DNA of 64,000 nucleotides. Origin: Marsupella aquatica (lineage: Eukaryota; Plantae; Marchantiophyta). A program made the translations under genes and the position numbers. The stretch lies in NCBI GenBank assembly GCA_973895155.1, contig OZ316891.1, positions 23,683,899 to 23,747,898 of the forward strand, given 5' to 3'. This document shows, in pieces, positions 17,826-60,035 of the stretch. The notes below the pieces were generated by a model. That model saw only the letters and a list, made by a program, of their open reading frames with translations, was not told where the DNA came from and did no database searches. Position 1 is the first letter of the stretch. Every line of letters starts with the position of its first letter.

Positions 17826-20227
17826 ATAATCTCAAAGTACGCTAAGGGAGTCTGGAATAGACCAAGGTTACTCCTTAGACATAAGTCAAAATGAAAAGAC
17901 TTAAGGATTCAAATCCATATTGCTTCTCAGATCTAAACTGCTTACTAGAGTACCTTTTAAAATGCCGTCAACATGTCTTATCCTTTCTTTCTAAGTGGTA
18001 CTCAGATAAGATCTAAAAGGTAGCTACTTCAACATTTAGATGGTACTGAGCAACACGAAAGAAAATCCATCAATTTCAATGAGACTTAAACTCAATAAGT
18101 TAACTTTAAGAACTCAAGAGATTGCAATGAATCACCAACAAGGAATCTATCATTACAATTCAAAAGATTTGCACAAAAGGAAGTTTACTTCCTATGTTTA
18201 TAATCATAGGTAAAAACACAAGAAGGAGGTAAGTCTCTAAATGTTAAACCTGATCTCGAACTCATAGATTCATGATCAACTAGTTTAACACAAAGAAAAG
18301 GCAAAAATGCATAACTTAACTGTCACGCGATTGACATGGGTCTTAACACCAAAAATGTCACTAAGGGTGCCAAAACCATCTCCTTGTACCTGAGGATCAC
18401 GAAGGGATGTTGTGAAGGCCGGTAAACACCAATTTATGCCCTTAACACCAGACTATCATAGCAAGACTCTATCACACATCACCCAAGCTCAATCCCAAGG
18501 AACCAAGGTTGGGGATCAGATCTGCGCTCATGATAGTTTTGGTGAGAAGGGGTCTTCATATTGGGCCCGTACACACAGGGCCTAGCGCTACGGTGCGCAT
18601 AGGTCTATACGTATGCTTACTGTCATAGGTGTATTTCTATTCCGCCGCCAGAATGTACCCATAACCAGTGACTCCTGACTGATTCCCAGCTTAGGGACTT
18701 CTAAGCCATTGCCCGGGTATAGCGACGGAGACAGGAAACAGGTAAACATGAATTTTTTTCCTATTTTTAATATGCTGTTACCAGGAAAAAATCACTGTTA
18801 CCAGGAAAAATGACAATTTAAAAATGTCTCCTAAAACATGTTATTTCCCAAAAAAATTAACAATGCAACATTTTTGGCTAGCTTTGGGCGCTAGCAAAAA
18901 AAACTGGTCCACCAATTTTTTTTTTCAAAAAAAATTCAAAAAAAATTCAAAAAAAATTTCCACCCATTTTCCTGTTACCAGTTTTTTTCCTGTTACCAGT
19001 TCTGTTATTAAATCATGTTTCCTGGTTGCTGTCTTTTGTAAACACCTCCCATTGCCCCACCACTCTGCCATTCCACTCTCAGCAATCAGAGCTATGACAG
19101 TCCTCACCCAACCCGCTTCAATGCACCCTGTACACCTCTTAGTGGCGCTGCTAGTCCCATCATACACTCAGATTGCCTCACACACACACACATCCATGAG
19201 AGAAATGAGGCCTGAGAGGAAAACTCAATTAGATTCAAAGATGTGCACAACAGCTCACTGAGAACACTCCCCATGGATCACGTAGCCTTGCCAGACTGAA
19301 CTGTAAATGCTCCTCCTGCTGCCCCTCAAATAGTGTCTCAACCTCCCTAATGTGCTCACCACAAATCAAATTGAAATCCTTCCCACAGTTTACAATCACC
19401 AATACATCACCTATCACCAAGGCTCTATATCGAGGGAAAAGAACCCAGTTGTGTTGCCCACTAGAAAGAGCCATAATCCAGCTCGCAAACCTAGCAACCC
19501 GTTGTTGTGAAGCTTGGCTGATTACTCCCTGAGTAATAGCACCACCAAGCTCTCCCCAACACGCAGTGTCCAAGTCTAGCCTTGCTTGCACAGAGCTCCT
19601 CCATGCTGCTCAGTCTACGTGAGATCACACAACTGGAGTTCCCCCCCCTTGCCTCTACCGGGGGGCTGCTCTATATACTCTCATACTGAGCCAAAATGGG
19701 TGGATACTACACTGCTAGAGCCCCATCCCAGCCCTAACAGAGCCGCCACTATCTTAACTACTGAACCCTAACTCGCAACTTTATTTCTATCTTGAATTGG
19801 CTATGTACTTCGGATTTGGCCCTCCTCCATGGTTTTTGCGAGCTTGCGCCTCCTCTCCCGATTTCTCTATTCAACCATTTTCTGCGTGGATAGCAGCGTT
19901 GGAAGCGGCTTGAGCTCCTCTTTCCAACGAGGTCAATCATAGCCGATTTGGCCAAATACACAGAAAGTTATGCCCCCGCAACCGAGAGGGGGTACTCATT
20001 GCTACGCTAACCCGAGTTACAGAGCTAACCCGAGTTCGGCTAGCCTAGCTATCCTATCTAACCTTAGAAGAGTTAACCCGAGCATTTAATTTAATTAGAG
20101 GAAGCCAGGAAGGAGAAAGAGCAGAATGGCCGGGAGGAAGTTTATTCACCTTTGGGATTGAGAAGCTAAACTGAAGGGACAAGAGGGAAGAAAGTATGAG
20201 GTGCATAGTGGCCTCGGGCTAAGCCGC

Positions 20228-20526
20228 TATCCGTGTCCGTGTCCGCTATCCGTGTCCGCTATCCGTGTCCGTTGTCCGTGTTTGTTATCCGTGTCCGTTA
20301 TCCGTGTCCGTTATCCGTGTCCGCTATCCGTGTCCGCTCGCTATCCGTATCCGCTAACCTCTATCCGTATCTGATATCCGTGTCCGCTAACCTCTATCCG
20401 TATCCGCTATCCGTGTCCGCTAACCTCTATTCGCTATCCGCTATCCGTGTCCGCTAACCTCTATCCATATCCGATATCCGTGTCCGCTAACCTCTATCTG
20501 TATCCGCTATCCGTGTCCGCTATCCC
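20228..20526. repeat. Complex minisatellite of CCGTGT/CCGCTAT/CCGCTAACCTCTAT units
   Basis: Directly visible tandem units over ~300 bp, followed by CCCGGGTGACA, a possible LTR end. Confidence 0.9.
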
Positions 20527-21764
20527 GGGTGACACACTAACCCGTCACACTAATAAGATCATATCTTCCTTAATACACCTCCATTTCTCGAGTGTTTTAT
20601 ATCGATTTTACTCGCCTTGACCAGATCTTTCCAATGCTCTTTACAGATCCGGATTTGGTGATGTATTGAAAGAGATATGGTCGTCGACCACCCACGACAT
20701 AGCTTTTATTTCCCTACTCAACGCCATGATTGCCCTTATTCTTGCCATCTTGCTAATTGTTATGCAATATCAATAGCTACTCCTTGTATACAGCAACCTA
20801 CTTACTTAGATTATAGAATAAGGACCATGTCATCGGCGTCACATTAACCATAATCTACACTAGTGGTGGAGGGGTCTTATAGTAAAAATCTACAGAGTAA
20901 GAGGTCATAAAGTCGAAGAGACATGCCTCTTCATACTCCTCAAAAAGTTAAAATGACGATTCAGTAAGTGAAAAGCCAAAAATCTGGCTAAGTCTGAACT
21001 TGTAAACTAGTAAAAGCTGTGAACTAGTAAACTCTTAAACTCGTAAAAGTCTAACTAAGTCGTAACTCGTAATTGCAATAGAAGTAAAAACTTGGCAAAT
21101 TTAACTATTTTTAACTTCTTACTCCTAGCTCATAAAAGCCTCAAATTTTGCTAGAAGGCTTTCCTAAGTACAGACTATATATTGAAGAAGTATGACAGCT
21201 TTTAAAGCTCTAGAACACATTTCTAAAAATCAGATAAGATGCACTATTCTTAAAACTAACTAAATCACTTAAGACTACTCTTCAAGCTTGCTATCAGATC
21301 TCTTCTGGTTTGAGTAACTCCACAAGGGTAACAGTCTGATTCTGTGTAACTTCCATTAGTTCAGCCTGGCGTGGGAATCCTCGAGAATAGGGTAGGCATC
21401 TCAATTGCCTTTTAGGATACATCAGGGGCATTATCTTCCTTAGATAACATATGTCTATTCGAAGAGCTTCTCTATACATCCCAATCATGTCATAATTATT
21501 GCAAGTAGCAGCATATACTTGGGGATAATGGTATAGGAATTCATCAGAGTTCAGCATCCTAGAATAGAAAGGGTGAAGCCTCCATTTGACATCTCTGAAA
21601 TACCGGTTGAATTCTGTAAGAGTCTGAGAGGTAAGGTGGAAGAGAAGTCAGTAATGAGCGCTTATGTCCTGCATTCCTTCCCTTCCAAGGCGCGCTCTTC
21701 TTCTATTGTGGAGTCCCGTTGAACTAGCCGTAAGATGTCACGACATAGGATCGCCAAATCATAA

Positions 21765-40855: not shown

Positions 40856-43800
40856 TGTGGTGCGCCCCATGGCTCCCTAAACCCAAGAAACCCCCCAGCG
40901 CAAGCCGATTCCCGCAGGTTTCGCGCTTGAAGAGGCCATTTTCGTGGCTTAGCGGCATGGGATGCTGCTAACCTCCTCCTCTACTACTATTAACATTTTA
41001 CACACATATACTGGACAGATCCTTCATCGGGTCATGAGATACGTAGCCGGCCTAATCTAGGCCTTCCCTTGTCTTCCCCTCCTTCTGGTTAGGTATGTTT
41101 GGATTCCGCCGCCGGAATGATCCCCAATAGGCTTGGTTAAGCCGCTAAGACCTCTCTCAGCTTGACACATCCAACTCTCACTCCCTTGCTTACTTTCCTT
41201 TGATGTGGGCACTCTTCACACAAGTTAATGCGACACACAAATAGCAAAATGACTCATTCTGACTGAGTCATACCATGCACTTGCCATACAAACAGTACAT
41301 CTCATACACAAGCTCTGCGAACTAAGCCGTGAGGCCAACTCTATTCAGCTCTTAGGCATGAGGAAACATGAATATATACAAGGGTCACTGTATGACTAAC
41401 CGAGAGCTTCTCTTACTACTTGATCCCAGCCCGGCTGGTGCAACTAAAAACTTGCTAAGGAAGAGGCCCTTAGCTCCCCGCTGCCCAAGTATTTATCCTG
41501 ATAGTGGATCCGCCTAATTCTTTGCAGCGTAAGCCTAATCTACCTATGTACAGCGAGGCAGAAGTACAAGTGTTGCTCTTACCAGTGGAACCGCAATCCC
41601 ACTAAGCTAAGTGTCAGGGCCGCCTCCTGGTCCTGATCCTAATCCTAAACTTAGAGATCTGAGCCCGCCCTGCCCACTCACGCCTCCTCCCTCCATGTCC
41701 GCCCTCCTTGAAAGGAGCGGCCCTCCACCACCGTCATGGCAGCGGTGTCTGTTCCTCAGTGGACGCCCCCAACGTTTCCTCCTCAGCCACTGCCGTTGGC
41801 CCGTCTACTGACAGATTACCTGCCCTTGACCGAGTCAACTCTTCATCGGCCTGACTGGGTCCACCCCCGGCTTCGGCCTTGACATCGGTTTCGGCATCAG
41901 CTACGGCTTCGGCCTTTGCCACGGCTTCGGCATCCCCTTCTTCTAGGGTAGTTGGATCCTCTGCCGTGACCCTGCCTGGGGTTGGTGCTGGGTTTACCTC
42001 CTCGGTCACCTCGGCCTGTGGAGCCGCAATACTCCTTGACCCAAAAGTTTTCCGCTTCTTCTTCTTCTCTGGTTCGGCAGCTGGTCCCTTCCCCTTCCCA
42101 CTTACTTCCGGCACTGGTGCAAGTGGCGCGGCTTGTCCTTCAGCCAGTACCACTCCTGGTAGCTTGGTTGCCCCAAGTGGAGTTGGGCCTGATGAAGCCA
42201 AGCACTTAAATAATGCGGCTTGTTTCTTCAGCCGCTCCGTTTGGTTGTCGGCTCGTCGTTGTAAGTTCTCCAGCCTCCGCGTGCTTTCCTCCAACTCCTC
42301 CTGCACCTCATCCAGGTCCTTGCATGCCTCCTCCAGTTCTTTCTGGGATTCCTCCAGCTCCCTGTGGGCTTCCTTCAATTCCTTTTTCAAGGTAGCCCTC
42401 TCCTCCTGGGTTGCTCTTAGTTCTTTGTCAAGCTCCGTTACGACCACAGACTCCATCTTATTCATCTTGGCATAAGTCTGGTCGAGCTGGTCGTCGTTCT
42501 CCCGTAGGTCAGCCTTGAAGCTGGCCGTCAGGGATGCAAGCTCCTGCTGCAGCGCAATAATCCCTTGATAGGATTTCCCTAACTCGGCCTCCTTCTGCTC
42601 AAGGGCTCCGTGGATATCCTCGAGCTCCCCCTTCAACGCCCTTTCCCTTCTCTGGGTCTCTGCCATGGCCCGGTTGTTGGCTGTTATGTGGGCCTCCTCT
42701 GCATCCCTCAGTTCTCGCTTCCACTTCTCCCGCTCTTTGATCGCATCGGCCAACTCTCCTTGGGTCCGCGTCAGTTTATTCTTGATAATCCGGTTATCTG
42801 ACTGTGCGGTATCTAACTGGCCCTGCATGATATTTAGCTCATGCCGCTTAATCCGCAGCTCATCTTGGGCTTTCCTGGCCGCCCTCAGGTCTTCGGTTTC
42901 GGCTTCCCTTGCCCTAAGCCGACGGATGACCTCGTCCTTCTTGCTTCTTTCCAAGGCCATCGCTTCTTCTAATTGGCGTTTCTCCAACATCTCCCTCTGG
43001 AAAAAGGGTCCCTGCTCCAACTCCTCCCCAAAGATGCTGAGCGCCAATTCCCCACACATCTCCCCGTACTCCATGGCTCTATCTTTAGCATAGGTGAAGG
43101 AAGTAGAAGTCATCGGCATTATCCATTGCGGCCTCTGCTCCCAAGCCGTCTTGCGTATTTCTTCTATGGTGGCAGGAGGGTTGCTTCTTTTTTTGGCAAG
43201 CTGCCTAATGTCCTCCGGCCAATCTCCTCCTGGTAAATCCTTCTCCCTAGCCAGGGCCGCTTCCTCATCCTCCCTAAGTCGCTCTTGAAATTCCTGTGCC
43301 GTCTGCTTTATGCCGTCAAAGCTCGGGGGAGCAATCTTTGGTGGGGGAGACTCGGGGCTACTCTGCTGGTTGGGGTCCCCTCGGACTACTCTTGGGAGCG
43401 TGGGGATGAAGCGACCACAAGTCCTTACTCCTGGAACATGATGATCCGACCCGTAGCCGGAGTCATCATTGCTATAGTCCACCACCTCCTCCTCGGCTTG
43501 GACTACCGGCGTCTCCCGCCGTTCTCCTGGTTTTGTTGTGAACACGGCTTTACCTCTTATTGGTCTTGGTTCCTCCTCCGGCTCCCGTGTTGATCTCTTC
43601 TTCTCCTTGTCGTGGCCGGGAGCTACGGCCTGCTTCCCCTCGGCTTCGGGACTAGAGGCTCCTACATACATCCGGACTCCCGGCTTGGATTCCGGCCTGA
43701 TTCTCTCCTTGACTCCAGTAAAGGGGTTTTCCTTTGTAAGCCGGTTTAGGCCAACCTCTGGAGCAGTGTTCTGTATTGTTGCCGTTGCCGTTGTCGTTGT

Positions 43801-45513
43801 TGTTCTCTTTTCTCTCTCCAGCAATTTCAGCAGGTTTTGCATGCCTGGTTGCTGCATCGGCAAGTCCTCCGTCCTTGGCCTAAACACCTGCTCGATTGTA
43901 GGACTGTCGGGCGGGTTGGGTTTCTCCGTTGCCGGCCTCTATTCCGGAACCTCCTCGGGTGCCCTTGCCTGTAGGGGAAGTACCGGGGCAAAGGTCTTAC
44001 TTTGGGCATACCGACACAATAGCGGCATGTGATAGCCAAGCCGGGACACGCTTCCCTTGCCGATCACCAGCTGTTCCTCCTTCAAGATCTTCTTTAGTTG
44101 AGTGAGGAGGTAACCGTTGTAGTCCCGGCTGGGGTCTGGCCTCTCTGCCAGATAGACCTGTGCCTTGCCGATCTCTGGTCTCGGCCAGTTGCAATGCATG
44201 GTCACCCGCAAGAAATCGATCATCTCACCTATATGCGGGTTGGTGCAGGTGTTATGGAAGAAGCCATTCTTTGTTGAAGGCCCTGGAAATGACCTAAACT
44301 CCGTGTCTGGCAAGGTCTTCCTGGTATCTACCTTGGTCTTATTGCCCATTGGCAAGCCAAACACTTCGGCAATCACCTGGGGAGTGAGATAGAAATCCTT
44401 CCCATACACCCATGTGGAATTGGTCTCGGACTCCCATGATCCCACGAATTCAAGGAAGTCTGAATTTGGTACCTCCGGCTTCAGCCACGGTAACCTTACG
44501 AAGGCCTCCAAGCCGGATCCGGCCATGAAGCCCTGATATTTCCGAGTCTGCATAGCCGTAAAGCATGCATCCTCCTCCCTTGCAAAGTGTAATTGGACCT
44601 CCTTGGGGAGGATCGCCGCCCAGCCTTTCCAGGTGTCATCTCTTGTTGGAACGGCGTTGATGGGGTCGACCTCCTCCTCCTCGGCTTCTCTCTCTCTCCT
44701 GCTCTGCTGATCGGCTGGTTTCTTTGGTGCCGCCGACCTCGTTCTTTTTGCCGGGGTGGCCCCTTCGTTGTTGTTTCCCTTTCTCTTCATCTCGGCTGCC
44801 GTGGATGTCTCTCCTAGCACGGTTGCCTTTGTCCACCCCTCTGTGCTACCCTTCAACTCCTAGTGTATGTCGTTGCAGCATTTGATGGCTTCGCGGATGC
44901 CGACGACTCTATCTTTGCAAAATAGCAGGTCGTCTAGCTCGTTACCGGTAGGAGTCCACAAGAATTTGGCCTTGATGAGTTCTCCTCCTAAGAAGGCAGC
45001 TTTCTGCAGCTCCCACAATCGAGTGAGCTCCTGCTATTCTCGAGCTGCTCTCTCTGATTCTTCGTCCTTGTAAGTCCCAATGTACCCAGTTGCCCGTTCG
45101 AACAGGCATCCCCAAAAATGTGCCGCTTGATTGACGTTGCTCATACCCTTCTCGAGTTGATAGTTGGTATCTGCTCCCACCCTGAGTACCTGCCTAAGCA
45201 GTTGACAGTAGTTGGCCTCATGTAGTCGCCTGCCCAGTTTGTGCCTGTAAAATGAGCCACAACTCCTCGCAAGCGGTCCTTACCCCTCTTCTCCTCGGCG
45301 TCTGTCTTTCGGTCGTGACCCCTAGCCGCCGGCACTTAGCGTGCCCTAACCCTAATCATGTTCTCTCCCCTGGTGTCCTCACCTCCGGCCTCGGCTCGGG
45401 TTCCATAGTCACCCTTAATTGTTTATATTTTTGTAACTATACTCATGTGTTTCTAGGGTACTCTACCCTTTTCCACTTTAAACTAGCCCAGTGATTCCTG
45501 GCTAGGCATCACA
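40856..45513 (-). repeat. 3' LTR of the family A element (4658 bp)
   Basis: Starts TGTGATGCC directly after the PPT and ends CACCACA. Colinear with the solo LTR. Confidence 0.93.
41734..45406 (-). pseudogene. LTR-encoded PMD-like/coiled-coil ORF with a few stops/frameshifts
   Basis: ORFs 41734-43887 and 43939-44856 plus upstream pieces match 13284-16904. Confidence 0.88.
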
Positions 45514-48500
45514 TAGCTCCCCACTTAATTGTGAAGCGTCCTCGCAAACAACTTCATCTTTGTCCATATAGTATTCCTTGAGGCGGTTGTAGTGAATACG
45601 AATTGGGTACACCTCTCCGGTAATGTTGGCCAATTGTACCGAGCCATTGGGGAACTTCTTTGATACCCTGAAAGGTCCTAGCCAGCGAGTGTAAAGCTTC
45701 CCTGGAAACTTACTATACCTACTGTCATAAAGTAATACAAGGTCTCCTGTGTGAATACTAACTACTTTCAACTTTTTATCATACTACTGCTTCATGATAT
45801 TCTGTCTATATTCTACTCTCTCGGCTGAAATCATTCTTGCCTCCTCTAAAGCTTCTAATTTATATTCTCATTCTTTCAGGCTTCCCTCCGCAGAGACTCT
45901 TTCCTCAATGGTAACTTGAAATGTTGGTATCTCAAGTTGCATGGGTACCAGAGCTTCTTGTCCAAAGGTTAAGAAAAAGGGTGTATGATCGGTAGTGGAT
46001 TTATAGGCTAAATTGTAAGCAAAAACGGCAGCAAACAATTTATCATCCCAATCGAGTTTTTTCTGAGCTACTGTCTTGTTCAATATCTTTCCTATAATCC
46101 CATTGGCTCGTTCTGTCAATCCATTTGCCTTTGGGTTGTAAGGAGTGGTAGGCCTATGTCTAACTAAATACTGCTCATTTAAACGACTAATTATATCATT
46201 CAGAAAATGGGTTCCTCTATCACTAACTAATTCTAGGGGTGCTCCATACCTGGTGAAGATCTGCTCATACATAAATCGAGCTGTAGTAATTGCATCATCC
46301 TTCATTGTCGGCCTCGCCTCCACCCACCTAGTTGCATAATCCGTGGCCAGGATTATGTACTTGTTTCTCCGAGGATGGGTTAATGGTTTCAGTGGTCCAA
46401 TGTAATCAATACCCCACTTCTCAAATGGTGCCAGAGGTAGAATAGGGTGCAGTGGATGTCTTGTAGACGCCCTTGGTCCTCCTGCTCGCTGACAAGGATC
46501 ACATTGTTTGATGAACTGATAGACATCCTTGTGCAAGGTGGGCCACCAGTAACCGGCATTTAATATCTTTTTAGACGTGGTTACTGGAGCAAAATGTCCT
46601 CCGGCCTCTTCTCCATGCATAGCCCGTAAGACTCGTTTTACCTCTCCCTCTTCTAAACACCTTTGGATAGTGCCGCTGATTCCATACCTATGTAGCACAC
46701 CCTTAATGTACCGATACTGTCTGACCTTCTGCAGGAAAACTGCGGCTTGTTCTTGGGTTAGCCCTGGCTGTAATCTGGACGTGCTGAGAAATTGCAAAAT
46801 CTCCGGGTACCATGTATCAGTTATTTCCACAATGAATAGCTCCTCGTCGGGGAATCGATCATTGATGCAATCCGTGGCTGGTTCACCTGTGATCCTTGAA
46901 AAGAAGTTGGCATTGGCGTGTAGCTTTCCCGGCTTGATTTTTAGCTCGTAGTCAAACTCCTGTAATAGCAAAATCCATCTTGCTACCCTGCCTGTAAGGT
47001 CCGGCTTATTTACTAGGTACTTCAAACTTTCATGATCGGTCTGAAAGATTACCTTGTACCCTAGCAAATAATGCCTAAAATTTTTACATGAATAAATGAC
47101 TCCTAATGCTTCTCTTTCTGTGGTGGAGTAGTTCCGTTCTGCATTGGCAAGCTGACGGCTTGCAAAGTATATGGGATGGTCCCTCCCTTTCTCATCCAAC
47201 TGACTTAGTACTGAGCCGATACAGAAGCCTGAGACATCTACAAAGACATGAAAATCCTTGTTCCAGTCTGGTGCTATCATGACTGGGGCCTCTACTAACA
47301 TTTGCTTCAATTCCACCACTGCCGTTACTCGTTCTGGTGTGGGTTCAAAGTCTGCACCTGCCTTGAGCATGTTGGTTAATGGTAAAGCTAGCTTGGCAAA
47401 ATCCTTGATGAAGCGGCGATAGTAACCAATGCACCCCAAGAAGGATCTTACATCTTTTATGTTCTTAGGTTGCATGATATCTAGCCATACTGCTAGCTTA
47501 CCTTTGTCAATTTCAATGCCTTTCTTTGATACCTTGTGACCTAGTAGTACCCCCTCTGTTACTCCAAAGAAACATTTATCTGGGTGTAACTTGAGACCTA
47601 CCTCTCTGCATCTCATGAAGGTCTTCCTTAGATATTTAGCATGTTTCGATGCCTTCCCAAATACTGCAAAGTCATCAATGAAGATTTCCATGAACTTTCT
47701 CAAGTAATCATGGAAAATGTTCACCATCAATCGTTGAAACATAGCTGGTGCGTTACAGAGTCCAAATGGCATACGATTGAAGACATAGATCCCCCATTCC
47801 GTGATGAAGGCTGTCTTGATTTGGTCCTCCTGCCTAATCCTGATTTGGTTATAACCAGAGTACCCATCCATGAATGAATATAGTTCATGACTGGCTACCA
47901 TGTCTAGTACCATATCAGTAAAGGGTAGAGGAAAATGGTCTTTTAACGTTGCTTCATTCAGCTTCCTGTAATCCTGACAAACCCGAATCTTGGGTTTACC
48001 ATCGGGTCCAGCTTTCTTGGGAACTATCACAATTGGAGACACCCAGTCTGAGTGATGAATCCGGCTTCCACTAGTTTGTCAATTTCCGTTTTGACCATCA
48101 GGGAATACTTAGGGTTCATCCTTCGAATCGGTTGTCAAAATGATTTGGCTCCTAACATGAGATCAACTCGGTGTTCTCCCAGTTTTGGGTCTACTCCTTT
48201 CAGATCTTGATGACTCCATGCGAACACATCTTGAAATTCAATTAGTAATTCACTGATCTCTTTCTCTAGCTCAGGTGCTAGGTCCCGCCCCAAGTTCAGT
48301 TCCCTTTCTTCTCCTAAGTCGAGCTTCCGGTATTGCCATGCTTGGATCATATTAATCTGCTTCTTCAAATTCGGGTCCAACCCGGCCTCCAACCTCTCCA
48401 GTCTCATACCTCCATAGACTGGAATCTCGGCAGTACTGGCCAAGTTGGTTTCTTCCTTGGTGTCCCCAGATTGTCCCCTTGCCGGTCTATCTGGTTTTGA

Positions 48501-48755
48501 ATTGGTAGTCGGCTTTCCTTCCTGCCTTGGCTCTAGATTGGGTATGTGCATTTCATCCGTCTCTTCCTCTTGAGGGTCAGGCCGCTGTGCTCTCCTGGCT
48601 TCTACTAGGGCCTCAATTTGTTCTGCCCTCGTAATCGGCTTGTATGCCGATCCCTTGGTTTTTAACTCCTTGCCAATGATAGATGGCGTTGTGGATCTTG
48701 CCGGCTCTGCCACAACCCCTGAGGAAAATCCACCATCTTGGGTATTGCTCCCCAC
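45502..48755 (-). pseudogene. pol: Family A pol (RT-RNase H-integrase)
   Basis: ORFs 48135-48755, 45868-48042 and 45502-45771. RT FIDD, RNase H FVDVS/EREAL, integrase HHCC and D-D-E (GIDYIG, VSDRG, TER). The stop lies in the first 12 nt of the LTR. Confidence 0.92.
45514..45526 (-). promoter_or_regulatory. Polypurine tract
   Basis: AAGTGGGGAGCTA immediately 5' of the LTR TG. Identical at 35083-35095. Confidence 0.75.
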
Positions 48756-51649
48756 CTAGCCGTTTCCAACTGGCTTACCTCTTGTGCTTCCTTCGGAATT
48801 GAAGCTAAAAAGGTGGACTCTATGGCAAAGCAGTCCTCAGCTTCATCGTCACAATCCTCCAAGTCACCTTCCATAGGTTCTTGCCATAGTCCGCTAGGGG
48901 ATACCTCTGGTCCAAAGACAGTTTCTTTGGTTTGGTCAGCGAGGCATTCTAGCCATCGTACCTCATCGGCTGATTCCAGTCCACTGTCGTACCCGTCTAC
49001 CTCCCTGATGCTTCTTCGACGGTCATCCTTGGTATCCCAGGATACTGTGATAGAAGGGGTCCCAAAAGTGAACTCCTTCTTACCCCAATCCTCTATTACA
49101 TTGGCTAGGTATAGCCATGGCCTACCAATCAACAGTCGGAATGATGTAGGATTTACCGGCTTCATTACTACATAGTTAATGCTAAAGAAGATACCTCCTA
49201 TCTCTGTCTTGATGCCGGTTAACACTCCCGTGGGAATGACCTGATATCCATTGGCCATGTTCAACACTCTTCCAGTCATCTCCGGTGTTAGACCCCACCC
49301 TTTTGCTGTTGAATCAATCATAATACATACCCCTGATCCTCCATCAATGGGTACCCGTAGTAATAATTCTCCTTGAATCATTAATGGTAAAGCGGGGGCT
49401 CCTTGATCTTCTTCTATCGTCAGCACGTCGGATCTGGTCGCTACCTTGGGTAATCTCGGCTTGCCGAGAATTGCCTTTCTTAACTGCTTCCGGAAGTACG
49501 GGCTATTTTTCAATAGCTGACCAACTATTGCCGAGACTCTAGATTCTAGTACATCTTTAGCCAGGTCATAGGGAACTATCGGCTTCTCTAGTGGTGTCTC
49601 CATCTTGGATTCGGCCTGTTTTTTCACGCTAGTCCCCACAGCTATTGGATCCTCCGAAGCAAACAATGCTTTTGCTCGTTCCACATCCTTGGCTATGGCT
49701 TCAGTGTTCTCCAGGGTTTCTAATTCTCGCAGTTGTTCCTTAACACTAGCTGTAATAGAGGGGTAAAACAACTTAGGGTGATCTCGATTGAAATCGCTGT
49801 CCTGTGAAGGATTGGGGTCACTGGTGAGCTCATGGCTTACCTGTGTTGCCGGCGCCTTTCCTTCTCCTTCCGTTGATGTCGACAAAGAGTCAATCTTCTC
49901 TTCTTTATCCTTCCCTTTATTTTTGGCTAGCCCATCCCACCTTTCCTTCCTTCTGGTTGATTGAGTAGAGACCCGGTAGCAATCATGATCCATATCCTCT
50001 TCTGAAAATGTTGATAGGGCCTCGGTCTCATCATCAGATGGTCCAAACTCTGCCTCGGCATCCACTTGCCATCCGAGCTCGATGTGGTTGATTTGAACTC
50101 CTCTGGGGGTAGTACCTGGCAGCAAGACTTTGACCGGCAAGAGCTTATGATTTGCGGCCAATCCTGCCAACCAAGTAGGACATTGTCCTAGCATGTGACC
50201 CTCCTGTCGGCATCCCATACATAGCTGAGCTGGCTGTCCATCACCTTGTTTGCGTGCATTCGGGCATTCTCTAGCAAAATGGCCAGGTTGACCACAGTTA
50301 TAGCATGCCGCAAATCTTTGCACATTCGGCCTAGGAGGTACTGACGGATTCTGAATAATTCGAGGATACATCTCTCCTGGATTGTTCCTTAATCCAGACC
50401 AGAGAGATGCAGGTCAGTTGGATAGGTCTTGTGCTCCAGTCTCACTGATGCCAAAAACACTATCAGCGGCATCTCCTAGAAAGTATTCTACTTCTCCCTG
50501 ACATGGTCTGACTTCAGCCACATGCCGAACACGACTAGTATTGAGCTTAGGACATGCATCTTTATGGTGTCCGGTTTTATAACATAAGGCACACCATACA
50601 GAGCTATCCTCCTGCACTACCTTCTTCTTTGGCTTCATCTCTACTATTATAGCTTTAAGCTGCTCGGTAAGGGCTACGATGTTATCTGGTGGTTTAGCCT
50701 CCAGATTGACTTTCGTCTTCCCTCTTCTTCTGCCCTTCCTTTTCCTAGTTTTTTCTTCTTCAGAACTAGAAGATGACTCACTCTTGCTACCTCCACTATC
50801 CAAGCTTGAGTTATCACTTCTTGACTTCTTAGAGTGTTTCTTTTTCTTATCCTTTTTCTTATGGGGTGATCCTTCCTCCGATGAGGAACTCTCAGACTTA
50901 AGCTATTTCTTCCGGCTTGTGATATCTGCATTAATGTATAATTGAATATCTTTAATTGCCTCGGCTAGAGTCTCTGGGTTCTCCTTCCTTATTGCAAAAC
51001 TCATCTTCTGTGGCAAAGCATTCACTAACCATTGAAGTTGCATACCTTCAGAGGCATTGGTCTTTGTACGTCTTACCAACTTTTGAAAGCGTTGCAAGAA
51101 CTTCCTGAAGGATCTGTTCTCCTTGAACCAAAGTCGTCCCAACTTCAGCACTGCTAACTCTGAAGTTCCAATGGGTCGAAACTCCTTAACAAATAGTGTT
51201 TTGAAGATATTCCAGATGGCTTGATCTTCCACATTCAATGCTCTATACCAAGGCCTAGCCTCACCCTTGAACAGGCCGGGAAGAATCTGCATCTTGATGG
51301 CCGATTCTCCATTTGTTGCAGCGGTGCCTTCGAAATCATCCAACCATTCATCCGGATCCTCATCTCCTCTCCCATGAAACGCCTTGTAATGAATGTGCGA
51401 CCATTGGCTCAGTCTGGTCCCTGGCCTATCATCTGGCCGTGCCTCAGGTTCCCCCATGTCAGTTGGGTACTCGTTTCTTGCTACCGACTCTTCTTCTGGT
51501 ATCTCTTCTTCGACGCCACTCCCAGCTTTGGAGCTACTAGCTCTTTCTGCCCCTCTCAGTCGCTGTGTATCATGCCACCCTGCGAGCTGCTGCAGACGAG
51601 CTCTCTCCTGTTGAATCGCTCTTTCCTCCCTTGGCGTAGGTTCAGTCAT
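48662..51649 (-). pseudogene. gag: Family A gag-protease
   Basis: Gag core, three CCHC knuckles, protease VPIDGGSG...LLIGRPWL. Two point stops (50903, 50414) are sense codons in the second copy. Confidence 0.9.
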
Positions 51650-51696
51650 TACCTACGCTTCTTTCCTAACTTCATATCTCACGGCTTAAGAAATTC

Positions 51697-51714
51697 CCCC
51701 TCCATCTAGCGCCA
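51697..51714 (-). promoter_or_regulatory. Primer-binding site (tRNA-Asn-like) of family A
   Basis: TGGCGCTAGATGGAGGGG, 4 nt after the LTR CA end at 51719. Confidence 0.8.
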
Positions 51715-51718
51715 AAAA

Positions 51719-52392
51719 TGTGGTGCGCCCCATGGCTCCCTAAACCCAAGAAACCCCCCAGCACAAGCCAATTCCCGCAGGTTTCGCGCTTGAAGAGGCC
51801 GTTTTCGCGGCTTAGCGGCATGGGACGCTGCTAACCTCCTCCTCTACTACTATTAACATTTTACACACATATACTAGACAGATCCTTCATCGGGTCATGA
51901 GATACGTAGCCGGCCTAATCTAGGCCTTCCCTTGTCTTCCCCTCCTTCTGGTTAGGTATGTTTGGATTCCGCCGCCGGAATGATCCCCAATAGGCTTGGT
52001 TAAGCCGCTAAGACCTCTCTCAGCTTGACACATCCAACTCTCACTCCCTTGCTTACTTTCCTTTGATGTGGGCACTCTTCACACAAGTTAATGCGACACA
52101 CAAATAGCAAAATGACTCCTTCTGACTGAGTCATACCATGCACTTGCCATACAAACAGTACATCTCATACACAAGCTCTGCGAACTAAGCCGTGAGGCCA
52201 ATTCTATTCAGCTCTTAGGCATGAGGAAACATGAATATATACAAGGGTCACTGTATGACTAACCGAGAGCTTCTCTTACTACTTGATCCCAGCCCGGCTG
52301 GTGCAACTAAAAACTTGCTAAGGAAGAGGCCCTTAGCTCCCCGCTGCCCAAGTATTTATCCTGATAGTGGATCCGCCTAATTCTTTGCAGCG
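51719..52392 (-). repeat. 5' LTR remnant of the family A element
   Basis: Nearly identical to 40856-41529, including a shared private deletion. Similarity stops abruptly at 52392. Confidence 0.9.
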
Positions 52393-54989
52393 ACCTTTGC
52401 CTAAACTAGAAAAAGCTGTTTGATGTGACTAGTAATGCTTGGTTGACCCGTAGGCTGACTGGAAACGCATGCATGAGATCATGCAAAAGCCTATTGATTC
52501 GTGTTGACTATAGAGCTCTTATATTCAATAGGGAGCTGATACAAATTCACCACTAGAATTCCACAAATTGCATAGATCCAAAAGAACAATCTGATGGATT
52601 GAATAAAAGAATAAGTTGATTCGGAGTGATTAGTACCACCTTGCTTTGACATAGGTCAGAAAATCAATACGGGCTACCTTATACTGATCTTTTATAATTT
52701 TCTAAGATGGCGGGTTTGAAGAAGATATGTAGGCATCAGTTTTACATGAGTTTTTACACCAATGATTCTTAATGTACTACCGCTGGTCATGAGTTACTAT
52801 GTAGTGATAAGGTATATTTCCATCTATAACTCACCTTCTATCAGTTTTCACGCCGCTGGCTTTTGGTTTTGTTTAACACTTTTTACCCCCTTTTGATTGC
52901 ACTATGGACGATACAAACGTCATACCTTTCATGGAAGTATCATAAAATTCCTTCCATAAACCTGAGCATGTTAAAAAGGCTTGTAACCTGAGTATGTTAC
53001 TCAAAAGTACTTAAAGTATCATATTACAATCTTTTAGGTCTCAATAGCTCTTAACGGGAACGAATCTAGGCTATTAAAGAGAAGAATAGTTATTCTTACT
53101 CTAAACCCTACTCTACAGCATCTACGTCCACACCACAGCCTACTGCACGGAAGAGCCAGAGGGAGAAGCCTACTGCACGAGAGTCTACCAGCCAGAGACC
53201 TATGCCCTCTTATGCTGGACAGCAGTCAGGATGTTGGACCTGTGGTGGGGATCATGCACAGAGATATTGTCCAGATCATAGAGGATCAGGGGGAGCATCA
53301 GCGCCTGATCAGCGACAGTGTGATCACTGTGGAGCTCCTGGACACACCAAGGATAGGTGTTTCTCACTCCACCCTGAGTTACGGAGAGGAGAATCCCGTA
53401 CACATGATCAGGGAAGAGGAGGAGGAGGTAGAGGTGGTGGACGTGGTCGTGGCATGCCACATGCAGGGAGACAGGGAGGTGACGCTGCCCCTGCTGTAAC
53501 CATAGATCCAAAGGATGCTAAAATTGCTCAATTGGAGCAACAACTAGCTGCCATGGCTAGTTCCCAGGTGAGACCTAATTCTGGTGATGGGGCATCTACA
53601 TCCTATGGACCTTCCACATCCCATGGTCCTTCCACATCTTATGGAGCTGATGGAGACCTTGCCACCATGGGATTCATGTGTGGCACTGCACATATTGATG
53701 CATCAGCAGCTTTGACACGTGGGGCAGCCAAAGCTCTTGAGCCCCGAGGAGCAGTAGTGGAGTTAGATCCACAAAGGGGGGATGCACGTCGGCAGACAAA
53801 GCTTCCTCAGTCTTTTACATTGTTAGAGACAGTTCAGACTGCCTCTATGAACCCGGTTCGGACAAACCCTGATGTGGGTAAGTTGGCAGAATCAGGTAGT
53901 GATGCAACAGGGATGACAGGTACCTTGCTGGGGGCGGCTACTGCCATAGTACGCACCCCATTATTTTCAGCGACAGACATGCTAAACTTGGGAGTTGGTC
54001 CTACAGAAGTGTTCAGATTGGCAGCTACACTCTGTGAGGACACTCCAGTGGTTGCTTCCCATGCAGAAGCAACTTGCAGTGTTGATGCAGTGAAGACCAT
54101 GCCACCTACTACTACTAGTGAGACATGGCATGCAATAGCAACGAGGTTGGTGGATTTACCAGCACGCCCTGCATTTGAGAGGACTAGGTTTAAACCTAGT
54201 GTTGTGTCATTGGATAATCGGAGTGGTATCTTCCAATTAGTTGGGCCTTCTGGAGCAGTATACCAGCCAGAGAGAGTGTTATTGGATACTGGTGCTCAGC
54301 CCTTGATGTTGGGGAAGTCTGCCATACGTGGATTGGGATTGCGTCCAGAGGATTTGGAGGATTGTCCCTTTCCCATTCAGACTTCATTGAGGGGACCTAC
54401 ACCTACACAGCATATCACCAGGAGACCACTTGATTTGAGGATTCAGGAAGGTCATACCACAGATAACTCACAGATATAGGCGCGAGCTATTCTGACTAAG
54501 GTAGAGTCATATGATGTGTTGGTGGGATGTACAGTGCTCTACCCCATGGGATTTATTCTTGATTTTTGGGAGGAATCAGTGTCATATAGACCTGATTGGC
54601 AGTCAGGAGATGCTCGATTGAGCAAATTGCCAGTGAGATTTAGTGGACTTGTGGGAGGCCCTAAATCCACACCATTGTCTTTGGCAGCATTTAGTGGTGT
54701 AATTGCTGGACCTGATGATTTGATTGAGGGTAATGCGCATGCAGCCGATGTTCCACCATTGGAGGAGTCTCATGAGGAGCACATCATGCGAGGATTACCT
54801 ATTGGCAGTGTTGTGCCACTAGTGTGGGGCACTGCACAGGCCTTGCCACAGGCAGCAGCACGATTGGTACATGATGCATGGCGTCATGCTTTTACACCAC
54901 AGTCAGGAGCAGAGCAGTCTCTTGCAGATGGACCTGTGACTCTTTCACCATTGGATACCACTCCTATTGCTTGGCAGTATCCACCGGAG

Positions 54990-55920
54990 GGTATTTGTTT
55001 GTTGGATCTTTTTGGTGGGATTAGCACTGGATTGGCTGTTGTTCTTCAAGCAGGAATTCCTGTGCGTCGTTATTTGTATGTGGAGACAGATGAGACAACA
55101 CGGAGGGTCTCATTGCGACATGTGGCTATGTTGGTGGATAGATATCCACAGTTGCTGCCAGTGGATGCTGTTCGTGGTTATCAGCATGCACTACCTGCTG
55201 ATATTTCATTGTTGGGGGCGGATCATCTACATCGTGTTGGCCCCATTGATTTGGTGATTGCTGGTTGGCCATGTCAGGGCCAATCTAGAGCTGGCATTGG
55301 GCATGGACTTCATGATCCACGCTCTGCATTGTTTTGGGAGATGTTACGGGTGCTGCGTCATCTCTAGCTACATCAAACATAGTCTCCAACATACATTTTG
55401 GAGAATGTGCCATTGTTAGGTGATGATCGTAGTCAGATTGTTGCCAGTGTTCACCAGGTGAGGTCTTGGATTGGACCTGCTGTGTTATTGGATGCTGCAC
55501 GTGTGGGTTCTCGTGCACATCGTCCATGCTTGTGGTGGACTAATTTGATCCCATGTGAGGTGCTGAAGCGCGCATTTGACATCATTCCACGCTCACCAGC
55601 CTTAGTGGTGGATGATATTTTGGATCCAGGGCGTCGGGCATAGGGTGTGACCCAACCTGATAGACCTCCATTGGCAATGGTCAATGCAGTTGGGCGCCCA
55701 CGTTGTGCATTACCCACTCTTGTAAGCCACTCTGCTTCATATGCATTCAGAGCAGGTGGCCCTGGACTTGTGTGGGACACAGCTCTCCAGCAGTTAGTGG
55801 AGCCTACTGCTGATGAGAGAGAGCGTGCTATGGGATTTTTGACTGGCACCACTGCAGTTGCCTCTATGTCAGAGGGTTTGCGGCGCCAGATTCTTGGTCA
55901 AGCAATGGACCTGAATTGTT
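54990..55920 (+). pseudogene. C5 DNA cytosine methyltransferase domain within the polyprotein
   Basis: Motif I LDLFGGI (55002), II YVETD, IV AGWPCQG (PC at 55269-55274), GLHDPRSALF, VI ILENV (55401), VIII AHRPCLWW, IX ERERAMGF, X RQILGQAMD, in canonical order. Confidence 0.92.
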
Positions 55921-58900
55921 TGACTTGGATTATCAGCTTGGGAGTAGCTGAACAGTTGCGGATGCGCTCTGCTGGAATTACTGATTGTCCCTTGGTGAGC
56001 TTGCGGTCCACTGAGACAGTATTGACCACAGTTGGGGGCGAGCAGACAGTCCATGGACCTATGGCAGGATTGGCCAAGGCTGGACAAATTGTTGAGCAGG
56101 AAGGGACTGCTCAATCTACTGCTAAATAGCAATCATCGGCTATCTCTTCTACCCTACAAAGAGATATTAGGGATTTGGTGGAGAGTTGGGAACCACAGTT
56201 TGGCCCTAAGTTAACAGGGGAGGAGAGACGTCGCATGCATCGATTCTTGAAGTGTTATTGGAATTGTTTTGCATTCAGCATGAAGGATTTGGGGACACTA
56301 AAGGGCCCTGGTATTCAGATTGAATTGGCTAGTGATGCGCCAATCTTTCGTAGACCATACCATTATAGTGACATGGAGAGAGCTCTCATTCAAAGCAGAA
56401 CTCAAGATTTGTTGGAGGCTGGATTGGTGGAGATTTCATATGGGGAGTATGCATCTGCCACAGTGATGCCAGCCAAGAAGGATGTGCATGGCAATTACAC
56501 AGATAGGCGCATGTGTGGTGATTACAGACCTATTAATCGCCAGACAAAATCTGATCGATATGCCATGCCCACACCTGAGGAGATCTTTGATGCTGTGGGG
56601 CATGCAAAGGTTTTCAGTTCATTGGATCTGAGGGCAGGGTACCATCAGCTTCCAATTAGGCATGCTGACAGGTCCAAGACAGCATTCTGGGGGATTGATT
56701 CTTATGGCAAAGATCGTTTGTATCAGTGGTTATTCTTACCATTTGGGTTGAAGAATGCACCAGCTGAGTTCCAGAGAGTCATGGATCGAATCCTTGCAGG
56801 TTTGGATTTTGTCAGATGTTATATTGATGATATTTTGGTCTATTCTTCTACTGTGGAAGAACATCAACAGCACTTGCAGATTGTGTTGGAGAGATTGAGA
56901 GCACATGGGTTGAAGCTCCATCCTGGCAAGTGTAAGTTCTTCCAAGACCAGATTGAGTATTTGGGCCACACTATATACCCAGGGGGATTGGGTGTACAGC
57001 AGACTAAAGTGGAGGCCATTACACAGATTTCTTGTCCTACTGATGTGAGTAGAGTTCGTGCATTCTTGGGATTGGCGAGCTACTACAGGAGGTATGTTAA
57101 GGGATTTAGCCAGCTTGCTAAACCTTTGACCATATTCACTAAGTTGGATCAGGAATGGATTTGGGGTGATGACCAGGAGCATGCCTTTCAGGAGTTGAAG
57201 CAAAGGTTGGCATCATCCCCTATTTTGAGAAGACCCATTTCAGGCAGACCATTTCAGCTACACACTGATTGGAGTGGAGTAGGACTTGGAGCAGTGCTGA
57301 CTCAGAAGGATGATGAGGGGAATGAATTTGTTGTGGCTTATGCCAGTAGATCAAACAATTCAGCAGAGGCTAAGTATAGCTCTTATAAGGGAGAGTGTTT
57401 GGCAGCAGTGTGGGTTGTTGCACACTTTTGTTGCTACTTGTTTGGTAACCCCTTCACCTTGATCACTGATCATCAGCCTCTTAAGTGGTTAATGAAGTCT
57501 GACAAGCTTACAGGGAAGCTTGCACGATGGACATTGTTGTTACAGGAGTATGATTTCCAAGTGGTGCATAGGCCTGGAAAAGTGAACTTGGATGCAGATG
57601 GATTAAGCCGCAATCCATGTACCAGTCAGCAAGATGAGACTGGAGCCAAATGGCATGATGAGTCAGATAAGGAGATGGTGCCAGGATGGCATGCATCTGC
57701 CTTTCTTTGTTGGGTGCCAGCATACAGTGGATCTGTGGACTCTACCTCATTGGATGGAGTGGATGATGAGTCTTCAGATGTGGATGTTAGTGAGGTAACT
57801 ACTGGACAGCAAGATATTCACAATGATGTGAGAGTGTTGGAATATCTGCGCAGTGGTTCTATTGTTGGCAGTGTTGATGCCAAGGAACGTGACAGGGTTC
57901 TACAAAGAGCCAAGAGGTTTTGATGGGAGGGAAACCATCTTTTGAGAGTACTACATGATGGTAGAGTGTTGGTGGTCCCAAAACCATCACAGAGAGTCCA
58001 TTTGGTGCGACATGCGCACGAGGAGTTGGGTCACTTTGGTGTAAAGCGCACTTACAGCTTGTTGCAGACACAATATTGGTGGCGTGGTATGCACACTCAT
58101 GTCCAGCTGTTGATAGCTAAGTGTGTGGTATGTGATAGAGTGAGAGCATCATTTAATGCTCCCACTCCCCAGTTGCACCCGTTGCCGATCATGGGTTTGG
58201 GATATCGTTGGAGTTTGGATTTTGCTGGTCCATTACCTCTTACCCAACGTCATAATCGGTATGTTTTGGTCATGGTGGAGCACTTCTCCAAGTGGATTGA
58301 GCTAGTGGCGTTGCTAGATAAAGCCAGTGGAGGAGTTGCTGCTACATTTTTGGATCGTGTACTCAGTCATTTTGGAGCACCAGCTGAGGTGTTGACTGAT
58401 CAGGGAACTGAGTTCCGTGGAGAGTTTGAGAGTTTGTGTGAACAAGCTCTGATTGATCATCGCACTACCTCTCGTGATCATCCTGAGGTAGATGGATTAG
58501 CTGAGAGAGTTGTGCAAACTGTGAAGAGAGGATTGCGTAAGTATGGCTTGCAGGTTGGTCATCTGGGAGATTGGGATCTCCAGCTACCTTGGTTAGCTAT
58601 GGGCTACCGTTTCAGTCGGCAAGCATCACTTGCATCCTTCTCACCCTACTTTTTGCTCTATGGTAGAGAGCCAGATTTGCCAGCAGCTATTCGTCGTGAT
58701 GCTGCACCAGTTGTGAACTTGGATGATCCTGATGTTTGGGTCAAGGTGTGTTCAAAGAGAGCACGGGTATTTCAGAGAGTGATGCCCATGGCTTTTGACA
58801 ACCTTGCCATTGCCCAACATTGTGATACTTTGAGGTATGCCACTATTCGTGGAGGAGGTTACCGTGCAAGCATTCGACGATTTCATCCTGGTGATTATGT

Positions 58901-59114
58901 TTATTTGCAGCAGACAACACCCACGACACTTGATGTGACCGTAGGCCGGACAATCTTACGTGTGCGTGAAGTGTTGCCTTCTGGTGTCCTGATGTTGGAG
59001 GGATGCGATGGTATGGTTTGGAAGGATCATGTGCACAACTGTGCACCATGTCACCTTCCCAACATTGATGGTACAGTAGATCCAAGCTTGGCACATGTTC
59101 GTGCTGGCTTGAAA

Positions 59115-59249
59115 TGTATGTTGTGTGGATCTGCTCAGGGAGCAGCTACTATGTTGATTTGTGATAAGTGTTCTAGAGGATGGCACATGTCATGTTTGAC
59201 ACCACCATTGCAGGTGATTCCTAGTGGATCATGGTTGTGTCCTCAGTGT
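59115..59249 (+). other. PHD finger (C4HC3) at the integrase C-terminus
   Basis: CMLC...MLICDKCSRGWHMSCLTPPLQVIPSGSWLCPQC, with canonical PHD spacing and the conserved W. Confidence 0.92.
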
Positions 59250-59430
59250 CGGTGAAGCCAACTAGTTATCATTTGTGTTCTCTTGGCAGATATGGATTGC
59301 AGGTAGGTGATCGATGGGGCTCACTTGCACTCGGCCTCCTGATCTTCACACCTAAAAAGGTGTATATCAACCTTGTAGAACTCATGGCTAGCTAGAGTTA
59401 GGGGACCTTACTCCCAGCTAGGGGGGCGAT

Positions 59431-60035
59431 TGTGGGTTTTGGACATGTGTGGACATGAGTTCCACTTGTATTCCATTCTCTTGTGTTTGTGATGTGGCAG
59501 TGTGACTATACCTGGATGTATATGACAAGCGATGTATGTTGTGTAGCGATATGTATGCGCACAACAGTTGTCACACCATTCTGAGTAGTGTAGTAGTATA
59601 TCATGCTATTAGAGTATGTACGTTTGGTATGAGTGCTATTGGAGCCGATAAGGTTCTGTCAAGTTTGTGTGAGAGGGTACTTCTCACTTGTGAGGCATTG
59701 AAAGGTCATCTTTCAATGTTGAGCCTTGGAGAGAGAGGAGCTTGAGTGTGGCTATGGTGGCTGTGAGCTCCGCTTGTGTAACGTGGATTCCTTGAGTAGT
59801 GCAAGGTGCGTTGGCTTGACATACGTGTGTGATCGGATCGGTGCGGGATCGATGGGGTATTGTTGACCGGGATCATTGTGCCAATTGTATGGAGATTATT
59901 GTGGGTTTTGGACATGTGTGGACATGAGTTCCACTTGTATTCCATTCTCTTGTGTTTGTGATGTGGCAGTGTGACTATGCTTGGATGTATGTGACAAGCG
60001 ATGTATGTTGTGTAGCGATATGTATGCGCACGACA
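59431..60035 (+). repeat. 3' LTR region of the MTase element with two 136-bp direct repeats
   Basis: 59431-59566 and 59900-60035 are near-identical TGTGGG...ACA units separated by 333 bp. Confidence 0.8.

Follow-up and report, generated by a model that had tools for sequence, protein, structure and literature searches.

The closest described system is KnitGypsy-Dnmt3 of the alga Klebsormidium nitens (de Mendoza et al. 2018, PMC5890265), which joins Gypsy domains to an unrearranged DNMT3-like domain under purifying selection and has DIRS-like split repeats. That paper places the DNMT within the Pol ORF and regards its capture in K. nitens as an independent event; no methylation was obtained in yeast, a result that the authors deem inconclusive. 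The same paper describes SymbioDIRS-Dnmt3, a dinoflagellate tyrosine recombinase element with a DNMT3-like domain and A-coding-B-A-B repeats, which methylates CG de novo in yeast. The EpiLTRs/DAM-LTRs are LTR elements that pair DNA methyltransferases with a histone reader; they carry Dam, a DNMT4-sister enzyme and a chromodomain, and their authors separate them from streptophyte Gypsy-DNMT3 (bioRxiv 10.64898/2026.05.21.726589). In Chlamydomonas, the Gypsy elements Gypsy-7a_cRei and REM1 contain a PHD finger that has been proposed to lower harmful insertions (PMC9940879).

Here, we analyzed a 64,000-nucleotide stretch of Marsupella aquatica DNA (the window) that contains an element of this kind. 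The kind itself is known from Klebsormidium, and later papers refer to it as streptophyte Gypsy-DNMT3; an earlier note on this DNA had mentioned Klebsormidium DNMT retrotransposons, and a Gypsy-Dnmt3 with the same repeat layout as relatives of the window element is indeed published there (PMC5890265). The window lineage likewise combines Gypsy domains with an unrearranged DNMT3-like domain under purifying selection, but differs from KnitGypsy-Dnmt3 in its land-plant and chlorophyte relatives, in the placement of its enzyme with Gag, ahead of a conserved stop, and in a terminal PHD finger, which goes unmentioned in the text of PMC5890265 and the supplements searched. It resembles the EpiLTRs/DAM-LTRs in pairing a methyltransferase with a histone reader, whereas the published domain list of Gypsy-7a_cRei (PMC9940879) has no methyltransferase. 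A literature search returned no description of copies in land plants, of the PHD finger, of the stop or of a second domain layout, with the proviso that subscription papers and supplements beyond its reach may list bryophyte copies. The REXdb text mentions neither a PHD finger nor a methyltransferase.

Structure of the Marsupella element and its terminal repeats

The Ty3/Gypsy remnant spans positions 53106–60035 of the window and is decayed and 5'-truncated (Table 1). Its domains, Gag, protease and C5 methyltransferase followed by reverse transcriptase (RT), RNase H, integrase and PHD finger, lie in a single frame (53070–59255) with six internal stops and zero frameshifts. This bears out the single, unshifted frame described in the earlier note, which spoke only of point stops; the stop at 56127, however, is no decay stop but a feature of the whole family. 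The Ty3/Gypsy order PR-RT-RH-INT is present, and 34 residues separate the second D and the E of the integrase DDE triad. The limits given earlier (53202–59255) were too narrow at both ends. Similarity to the Marchantia ORF1 protein P0003 (tblastn) begins at 53106, which corresponds to P0003 residue 257, indicating that the 5' repeat and the Gag N-terminus are absent from this copy; on the right, the element continues through split terminal repeats and stops at 60035, within the RT of another Gypsy copy.

Table 1. Features of the Marsupella aquatica element, in window coordinates
Feature	Position	Strand	Basis or remark
ORF1 remnant: Gag C-terminal half, protease, methyltransferase	53106..56129	+	5' part deleted; tblastn to P0003
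Two CCHC-like zinc knuckles	53232..53360	+	Sequence; homologues P0030, P0037 match PF00098
Aspartic protease, DTG motif ~54285	54192..54629	+	PF13650 E 0.009, below cut-off; same region in homologues
ORF1 decay stops	54477, 55365, 55380, 55641	+	Four, in reading frame
DNMT3-like C5 methyltransferase	54960..55973	+	Catalytic Cys 55272, ENV Glu 55401; inactive copy
Conserved stop TAG + CAATCA, predicted readthrough signal, TMV CAR-YYA type	56127..56135	+	
Reverse transcriptase, YIDD at 56820	56322..56999	+	PF00078 E 3e-34
RNase H	57147..57569	+	PF17917 E 7e-35
Decay stop upstream of integrase	57921	+	
Integrase: HHCC, D 58218, D 58398, E 58503, C-terminal region	57972..59099	+	PF17921, PF00665
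C4HC3 PHD finger and final stop	59115..59255	+	PF00628 E 9e-11
Polypurine-tract-like run, directly 5' of B1	59420..59428	+	Sequence; also precedes B1 in relatives
Repeat B1, ends CA	59429..59566	+	97% identical to B2
Repeat A2, TG start two bases after B1	59569..59897	+	Inferred from position, A1 deleted; layout in L050, L057, L063
Repeat B2, true right end	59898..60035	+	Adjoins RT of another Gypsy copy, minus strand

Contig pieces of run X1 (21,353 in number) map to the window across its full length and represent many sibling sequences; contig depth, which we did not take as copy number, climbs sharply near 53150. The segment immediately to the left (52393–53105) is AT-rich, was unmatched in the window or the loci, and has a contig depth far below that of the element. 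Beyond it, on the minus strand (40856–52392), an 11.5-kb Gypsy element lies between 674-bp repeats that are 98.8% identical; it has long extra ORFs 3' of pol with no clear Pfam family (e.g. 41737–43938), and fragments of the extra region turn up in at least five places across the window. A tandem array of a 13-bp unit and its variants occupies 20223–20558.

Two complete identical LTRs are absent, and the ends are instead split repeats of the form A...B-A-B, which is non-canonical for Ty3/Gypsy. Complete relatives (L050, L057, L063) are ~9.2 kb long and have this layout, TG...CA ends and 4-bp target duplications. Such duplications were found in all six related loci with both ends (five distinct insertions); the left end of the window copy is deleted. 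The DDE integrase in the window and the target duplications of the relatives set the lineage apart from DIRS/Ngaro elements, which use a tyrosine recombinase and leave no duplication, and hence from SymbioDIRS-Dnmt3 (PMC5890265) despite the shared repeat plan.

A census of right ends showed 11 loci ending after one B, seven, including the window, with B-nn-A, and one at a contig end. Single-B copies also carry target duplications. L034 (one B, 13482) and L053 (B-A-B, 8171) have the same right flank in two assemblies, suggesting that single-B copies likely arose by later recombination or assembly collapse; we therefore dropped the idea that the integrase cuts the internal junction to make A...B copies. 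No tRNA-type (TGG-type) primer-binding site was found after A1 or B1. The purine run precedes B, but the left end starts at A, so that end cannot be explained as the plus-strand start alone. Cutting at the CA-nn-TG junction could yield it, although use of such a junction is a model given up for retroviruses (PMC11054761). We also considered self-priming through a palindrome at the beginning of A, and dropped it because the window does not retain the palindrome seen in metagenome subfamily 1.

The methyltransferase and the PHD finger

The motifs listed in the earlier note (FGG, PCQ, ENV, HRxx, ERAMGF, LGQA) are present and in order, and the domain matched PF00145 (E 5e-10, 39.8 bits against a cut-off of 22, stops read as X). 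Among solved structures its best match was DNMT3A (E 6e-12 alone, 3e-23 as a profile), and DNMT3A, 3C and 3B outranked DRM (1e-11) and M.HaeIII (3e-8) in the structure-sequence search. A predicted model of P0001, an intact relative with 87% identity, had a mean pLDDT of 89. Foldseek placed DNMT3A-DNA complexes first for this model, which scored highest with DNMT3B (Z 27.9, rmsd 2.8, 279 aligned), followed by DNMT3A (Z 27.3), the bacterial CpG enzyme M.MpeI (25.0) and DNMT1 (18.7). With motifs I–X unrearranged, the enzyme is DNMT3-like by sequence and predicted fold.

To survey conserved residues, 141 full-length methyltransferase domains were reduced to 105 at <80% identity. The catalytic Cys was kept in 104/105, the ENV Glu in 103/105 and each motif VIII Arg in 102/105. 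In the window copy the second of these Arg residues is replaced by Cys at 55527, and together with three stops inside the domain this indicates that the copy is dead. Between families, the methyltransferase dN/dS was 0.12–0.18 (eight pairs, the window against eight metagenome copies, with dS near saturation), similar to that of RNase H and higher than that of RT; values of 0.00, which reflect saturated dS, were left out. Close copies gave 0.56–0.96, against 0.30–0.70 for RT, as expected if much of their divergence postdates insertion. Loss of the catalytic residues and dN/dS near 1 had both been named as evidence against the earlier note's proposal; the residues are conserved, and the ratio is low between families but higher among close copies. 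These data support selection on the methyltransferase as part of the element, judged from sequence comparison.

The PHD finger noted earlier at the integrase end was confirmed by its match to PF00628. Across 108 homologues, seven of its zinc ligands never vary, and the remaining one is either Cys or His. The aromatic cage for K4me3 uses a Trp two positions before the PHD His; this position is Gly in 91% of the 108 homologues. The nearest PHD structures were those of CHD4, DPF3, ATXR5, KMT2D, KDM5B, PHF21A, UHRF1 and AIRE, among which KDM5B PHD1 and AIRE PHD1 are described as binding unmethylated H3K4. The finger resembles readers of unmethylated H3K4, and binding to K4me0 is predicted, although the bryophyte fingers have no acidic residue before the first Cys.

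The conserved stop between methyltransferase and reverse transcriptase

The TAG at 56127 and the CAATCA after it match the TMV-type leaky-stop consensus CAR-YYA, in frame with the downstream ORF. In TMV, UAG followed by CAR-YYA gives ~10% readthrough (PMC2754532); the window signal shares this context, is predicted from sequence and separates Gag-protease-methyltransferase from RT. No variant at ≥3% was found at the nine bases 56127–56135 in four runs of sibling sequences, whereas the decay stop at 55641 is missing from ~97% of X1 sibling depth. P0001 and P0337 terminate at the same residue. In metagenome subfamily 1, 41 of 42 dereplicated loci had TAG or TAA at the corresponding position, mostly followed by CAACCC, which is not a full CAR-YYA. 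Six loci of subfamily 2 had TAA-CAATCA (five) or TAA-CAATTA (one). The evidence amounts to three lineages, not 48 events. These counts leave aside 27 of 75 linker segments that could not be aligned to the subfamily-1 stop site, many being too decayed or carrying insertions, as well as motif matches in L028 and L043 (deletion, no RT). L047 and L064 have a sense codon at this position.

Most proteins with a protease and a complete methyltransferase end (31/36) terminate without RT, generally 60–170 residues on, some of them being decayed gene models; the other five comprise four annotated models of decayed copies and one true single ORF. The DNMT lies inside the Pol ORF in P0040, P0141 and P0338, and no stop separates methyltransferase from RT in the single ORFs P0141 and P0338. 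The intact ORF of about 2,000 residues envisaged earlier probably does not exist in the window family, where the conserved stop divides ORF1 from ORF2. A conserved stop in a TMV-type leaky context suggests that the methyltransferase is likely made as abundantly as capsid, with Pol produced by readthrough. As the methyltransferase belongs to ORF1 and the PHD finger ends ORF2, writer and reader likely end up as distinct proteins once the products are processed.

Host range, origin and proposed function

Named relatives carrying the methyltransferase were found in Marchantia, Calypogeia, Sphagnum, Mesostigma, Haematococcus, Closterium and Tetraselmis, and Pol relatives additionally in Riccia, Klebsormidium and one Coleochaete transcript. 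Among the matches listed, the closest named relatives were liverworts (72% identity in the methyltransferase, 76–77% over parts of Pol), and no vascular plant appeared (101 of 101, 120 of 2748 and 120 of 240 matches). Viral contigs gave no close relative, only weak partial matches of 26–37% identity at eight loci. Several Marchantia and Sphagnum gene models (P0003, P0004, P0016, P0235, including Mp4g09160, which is P0003, and Mp8g17980) are ORF1 of this element family, and several such models are labeled cytosine methyltransferase. Family proteins P0361, P0220 and P0101 are filed under Synechococcales, Obscuribacterales and Spirochaetia, probably because eukaryotic contigs were binned with bacteria. 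In P0215, P0193, P0207 and P0213, which are related Gypsy Pol proteins, the PHD precedes the integrase; P0215 also carries a deoxynucleoside kinase domain, and the other three a Dam adenine methyltransferase. Inverted same-lineage pieces around the methyltransferase (L055, L059, L064, L074, L079) represent one rearranged copy that these loci share.

A profile search yielded 550 clusters at E 1e-30 or better. Two layouts were seen: the methyltransferase before RT, as in the window, or between RNase H and integrase. In a 116-row tree of RT-RNase H, a single clade (support 0.87) held all methyltransferase carriers together with Klebsormidium proteins, including the Pol sequences P0177 and P0187; no retrieved Klebsormidium Pol carried a DNMT, and Klebsormidium P0162 has a terminal PHD. 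Methyltransferase and integrase trees of 64 elements had 25 of 61 splits in common (Mantel rho 0.64, 0/999 permutations as high). Elements with the RH-MT-INT layout formed a single clade (98) when the methyltransferase was used, whereas the integrase tree did not unite them. All trees were built by FastTree with a thin outgroup. Given the agreement of the two trees, a single ancient capture of the methyltransferase appears the simplest reading, for sequences gathered by their similarity to the window element. Conserved residues, dN/dS and agreeing trees also uphold the earlier view of the methyltransferase as element architecture and not a chance neighbor.

We consider it probable that the Marsupella copy is a decayed member of an old green-lineage Ty3/Gypsy group whose DNMT3-like enzyme ends the Gag-protease frame, is likely produced at capsid level and would methylate new cDNA. 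The domain order, conserved stop, catalytic-residue conservation, split repeats, 4-bp duplications of the relatives and breadth of lineages are established; self-methylation of cDNA is our best reading of them. The CpG content of the window element offers a hint. Its CpG o/e was 0.32, against 0.61 in the copy hosting the insertion and 0.61–0.64 in neighbors, with a CA/TG excess of 1.54 against 1.03 in neighbors. The element must be younger than the copy that received it, and age therefore does not account for the loss. CCG sites are lost from the element and retained in neighboring elements (33/216 of CpG against 503/1284), a contrast whose significance by Fisher test is overstated because both strands and repeated neighbors were counted. 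For moss DNMT3b, CCG is reported as the least affected of the CG contexts (PMC6453930). In metagenome subfamily 1 neither loss was seen (CpG o/e 0.54–0.59, CCG spared), and unrelated-looking Gypsy pieces in its loci had CpG o/e of 0.29–0.38. Since the footprint is missing from the metagenome subfamilies, we rejected it as proof of self-methylation.

Other explanations were weighed against cDNA methylation by a capsid-level enzyme. If the 56127-type stop were a true terminator, Pol would have to be translated by re-initiation at an ATG further downstream or from an RNA that is spliced or subgenomic. An ATG lies 2–4 codons past the stop in both metagenome subfamilies, and several ORF2 proteins start with Met-Pro; yet the window has no ATG close to the stop, its family lacks a Met for 35 codons downstream, non-Met starts were assigned to P0443, P0472 and P0363, and the CAA after the stop is conserved although the linkers are unalignable, which makes true termination unlikely. 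The enzyme might instead be nuclear and target the insertion site or older copies, guided by the integrase-PHD. This would suit the second layout, in which the methyltransferase directly precedes integrase-PHD in one ORF (RT-RH-MT-INT-PHD, 34 of the best 150 representatives), but in the window family the two lie ~3 kb apart with a stop between them, and CCG loss is not common to neighboring elements; we regard nuclear action as improbable.

Retention of the domain as a nucleic-acid-binding or RNA-modifying module without DNA methylation seems very unlikely to us. It would accord with the inactivity of KnitGypsy-Dnmt3 in yeast (PMC5890265) and with a loop after the conserved PTL motif that varies among Tyr, Phe, Thr and Arg, but the catalytic Cys, Glu and both Arg are near-invariant in relatives down to 33% identity, and the enzyme is nearer to DNMT3 than to DNMT2. 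Retroelements lie nested in the window, a setting in which a piece of a host DNMT3 gene could have been captured once or inserted into this copy. We give this virtually no credence, since most of the 101 longer homologues carry retroelement domains, as do all 80 proteins of ≥1000 aa among the best 150 of the 550 representatives, and sibling contigs cover the methyltransferase like the remainder of the element; one-off capture, an objection anticipated in the earlier note, is thereby refuted.

With capsid-level production and cDNA methylation as the preferred reading, most ribosomes would halt at UAG-CAAUCA, and a minority would read through to make RT, RNase H, integrase and PHD. The protease would release the methyltransferase inside the particle, where it may methylate cDNA, probably at CG, before or during integration, and a new copy would thus arrive resembling methylated host chromatin. 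The DDE integrase would insert DNA bearing TG...CA ends, and its PHD finger, by binding K4-unmethylated H3 tails, could bias insertion away from active promoters. A bolder version is conceivable and is put forward tentatively: a green-plant-wide ancient Gypsy lineage, hidden from LTR surveys by its split ends, captured DNMT3 once; in bryophytes a leaky stop loads particles with capsid-level methyltransferase, and the fully methylated cDNA is then placed in silent chromatin by the K4me0-reading integrase via the internal CA-nn-TG junction.

In 2018 the sole Gypsy example of a transposon-borne DNMT was algal and inactive in yeast. The Marchantia and Sphagnum copies bring the role of such enzymes within reach of genetically tractable land plants, and the conserved stop predicts a large excess of enzyme over RT. 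The host range recasts what was a lineage-specific capture as an old green-plant lineage.
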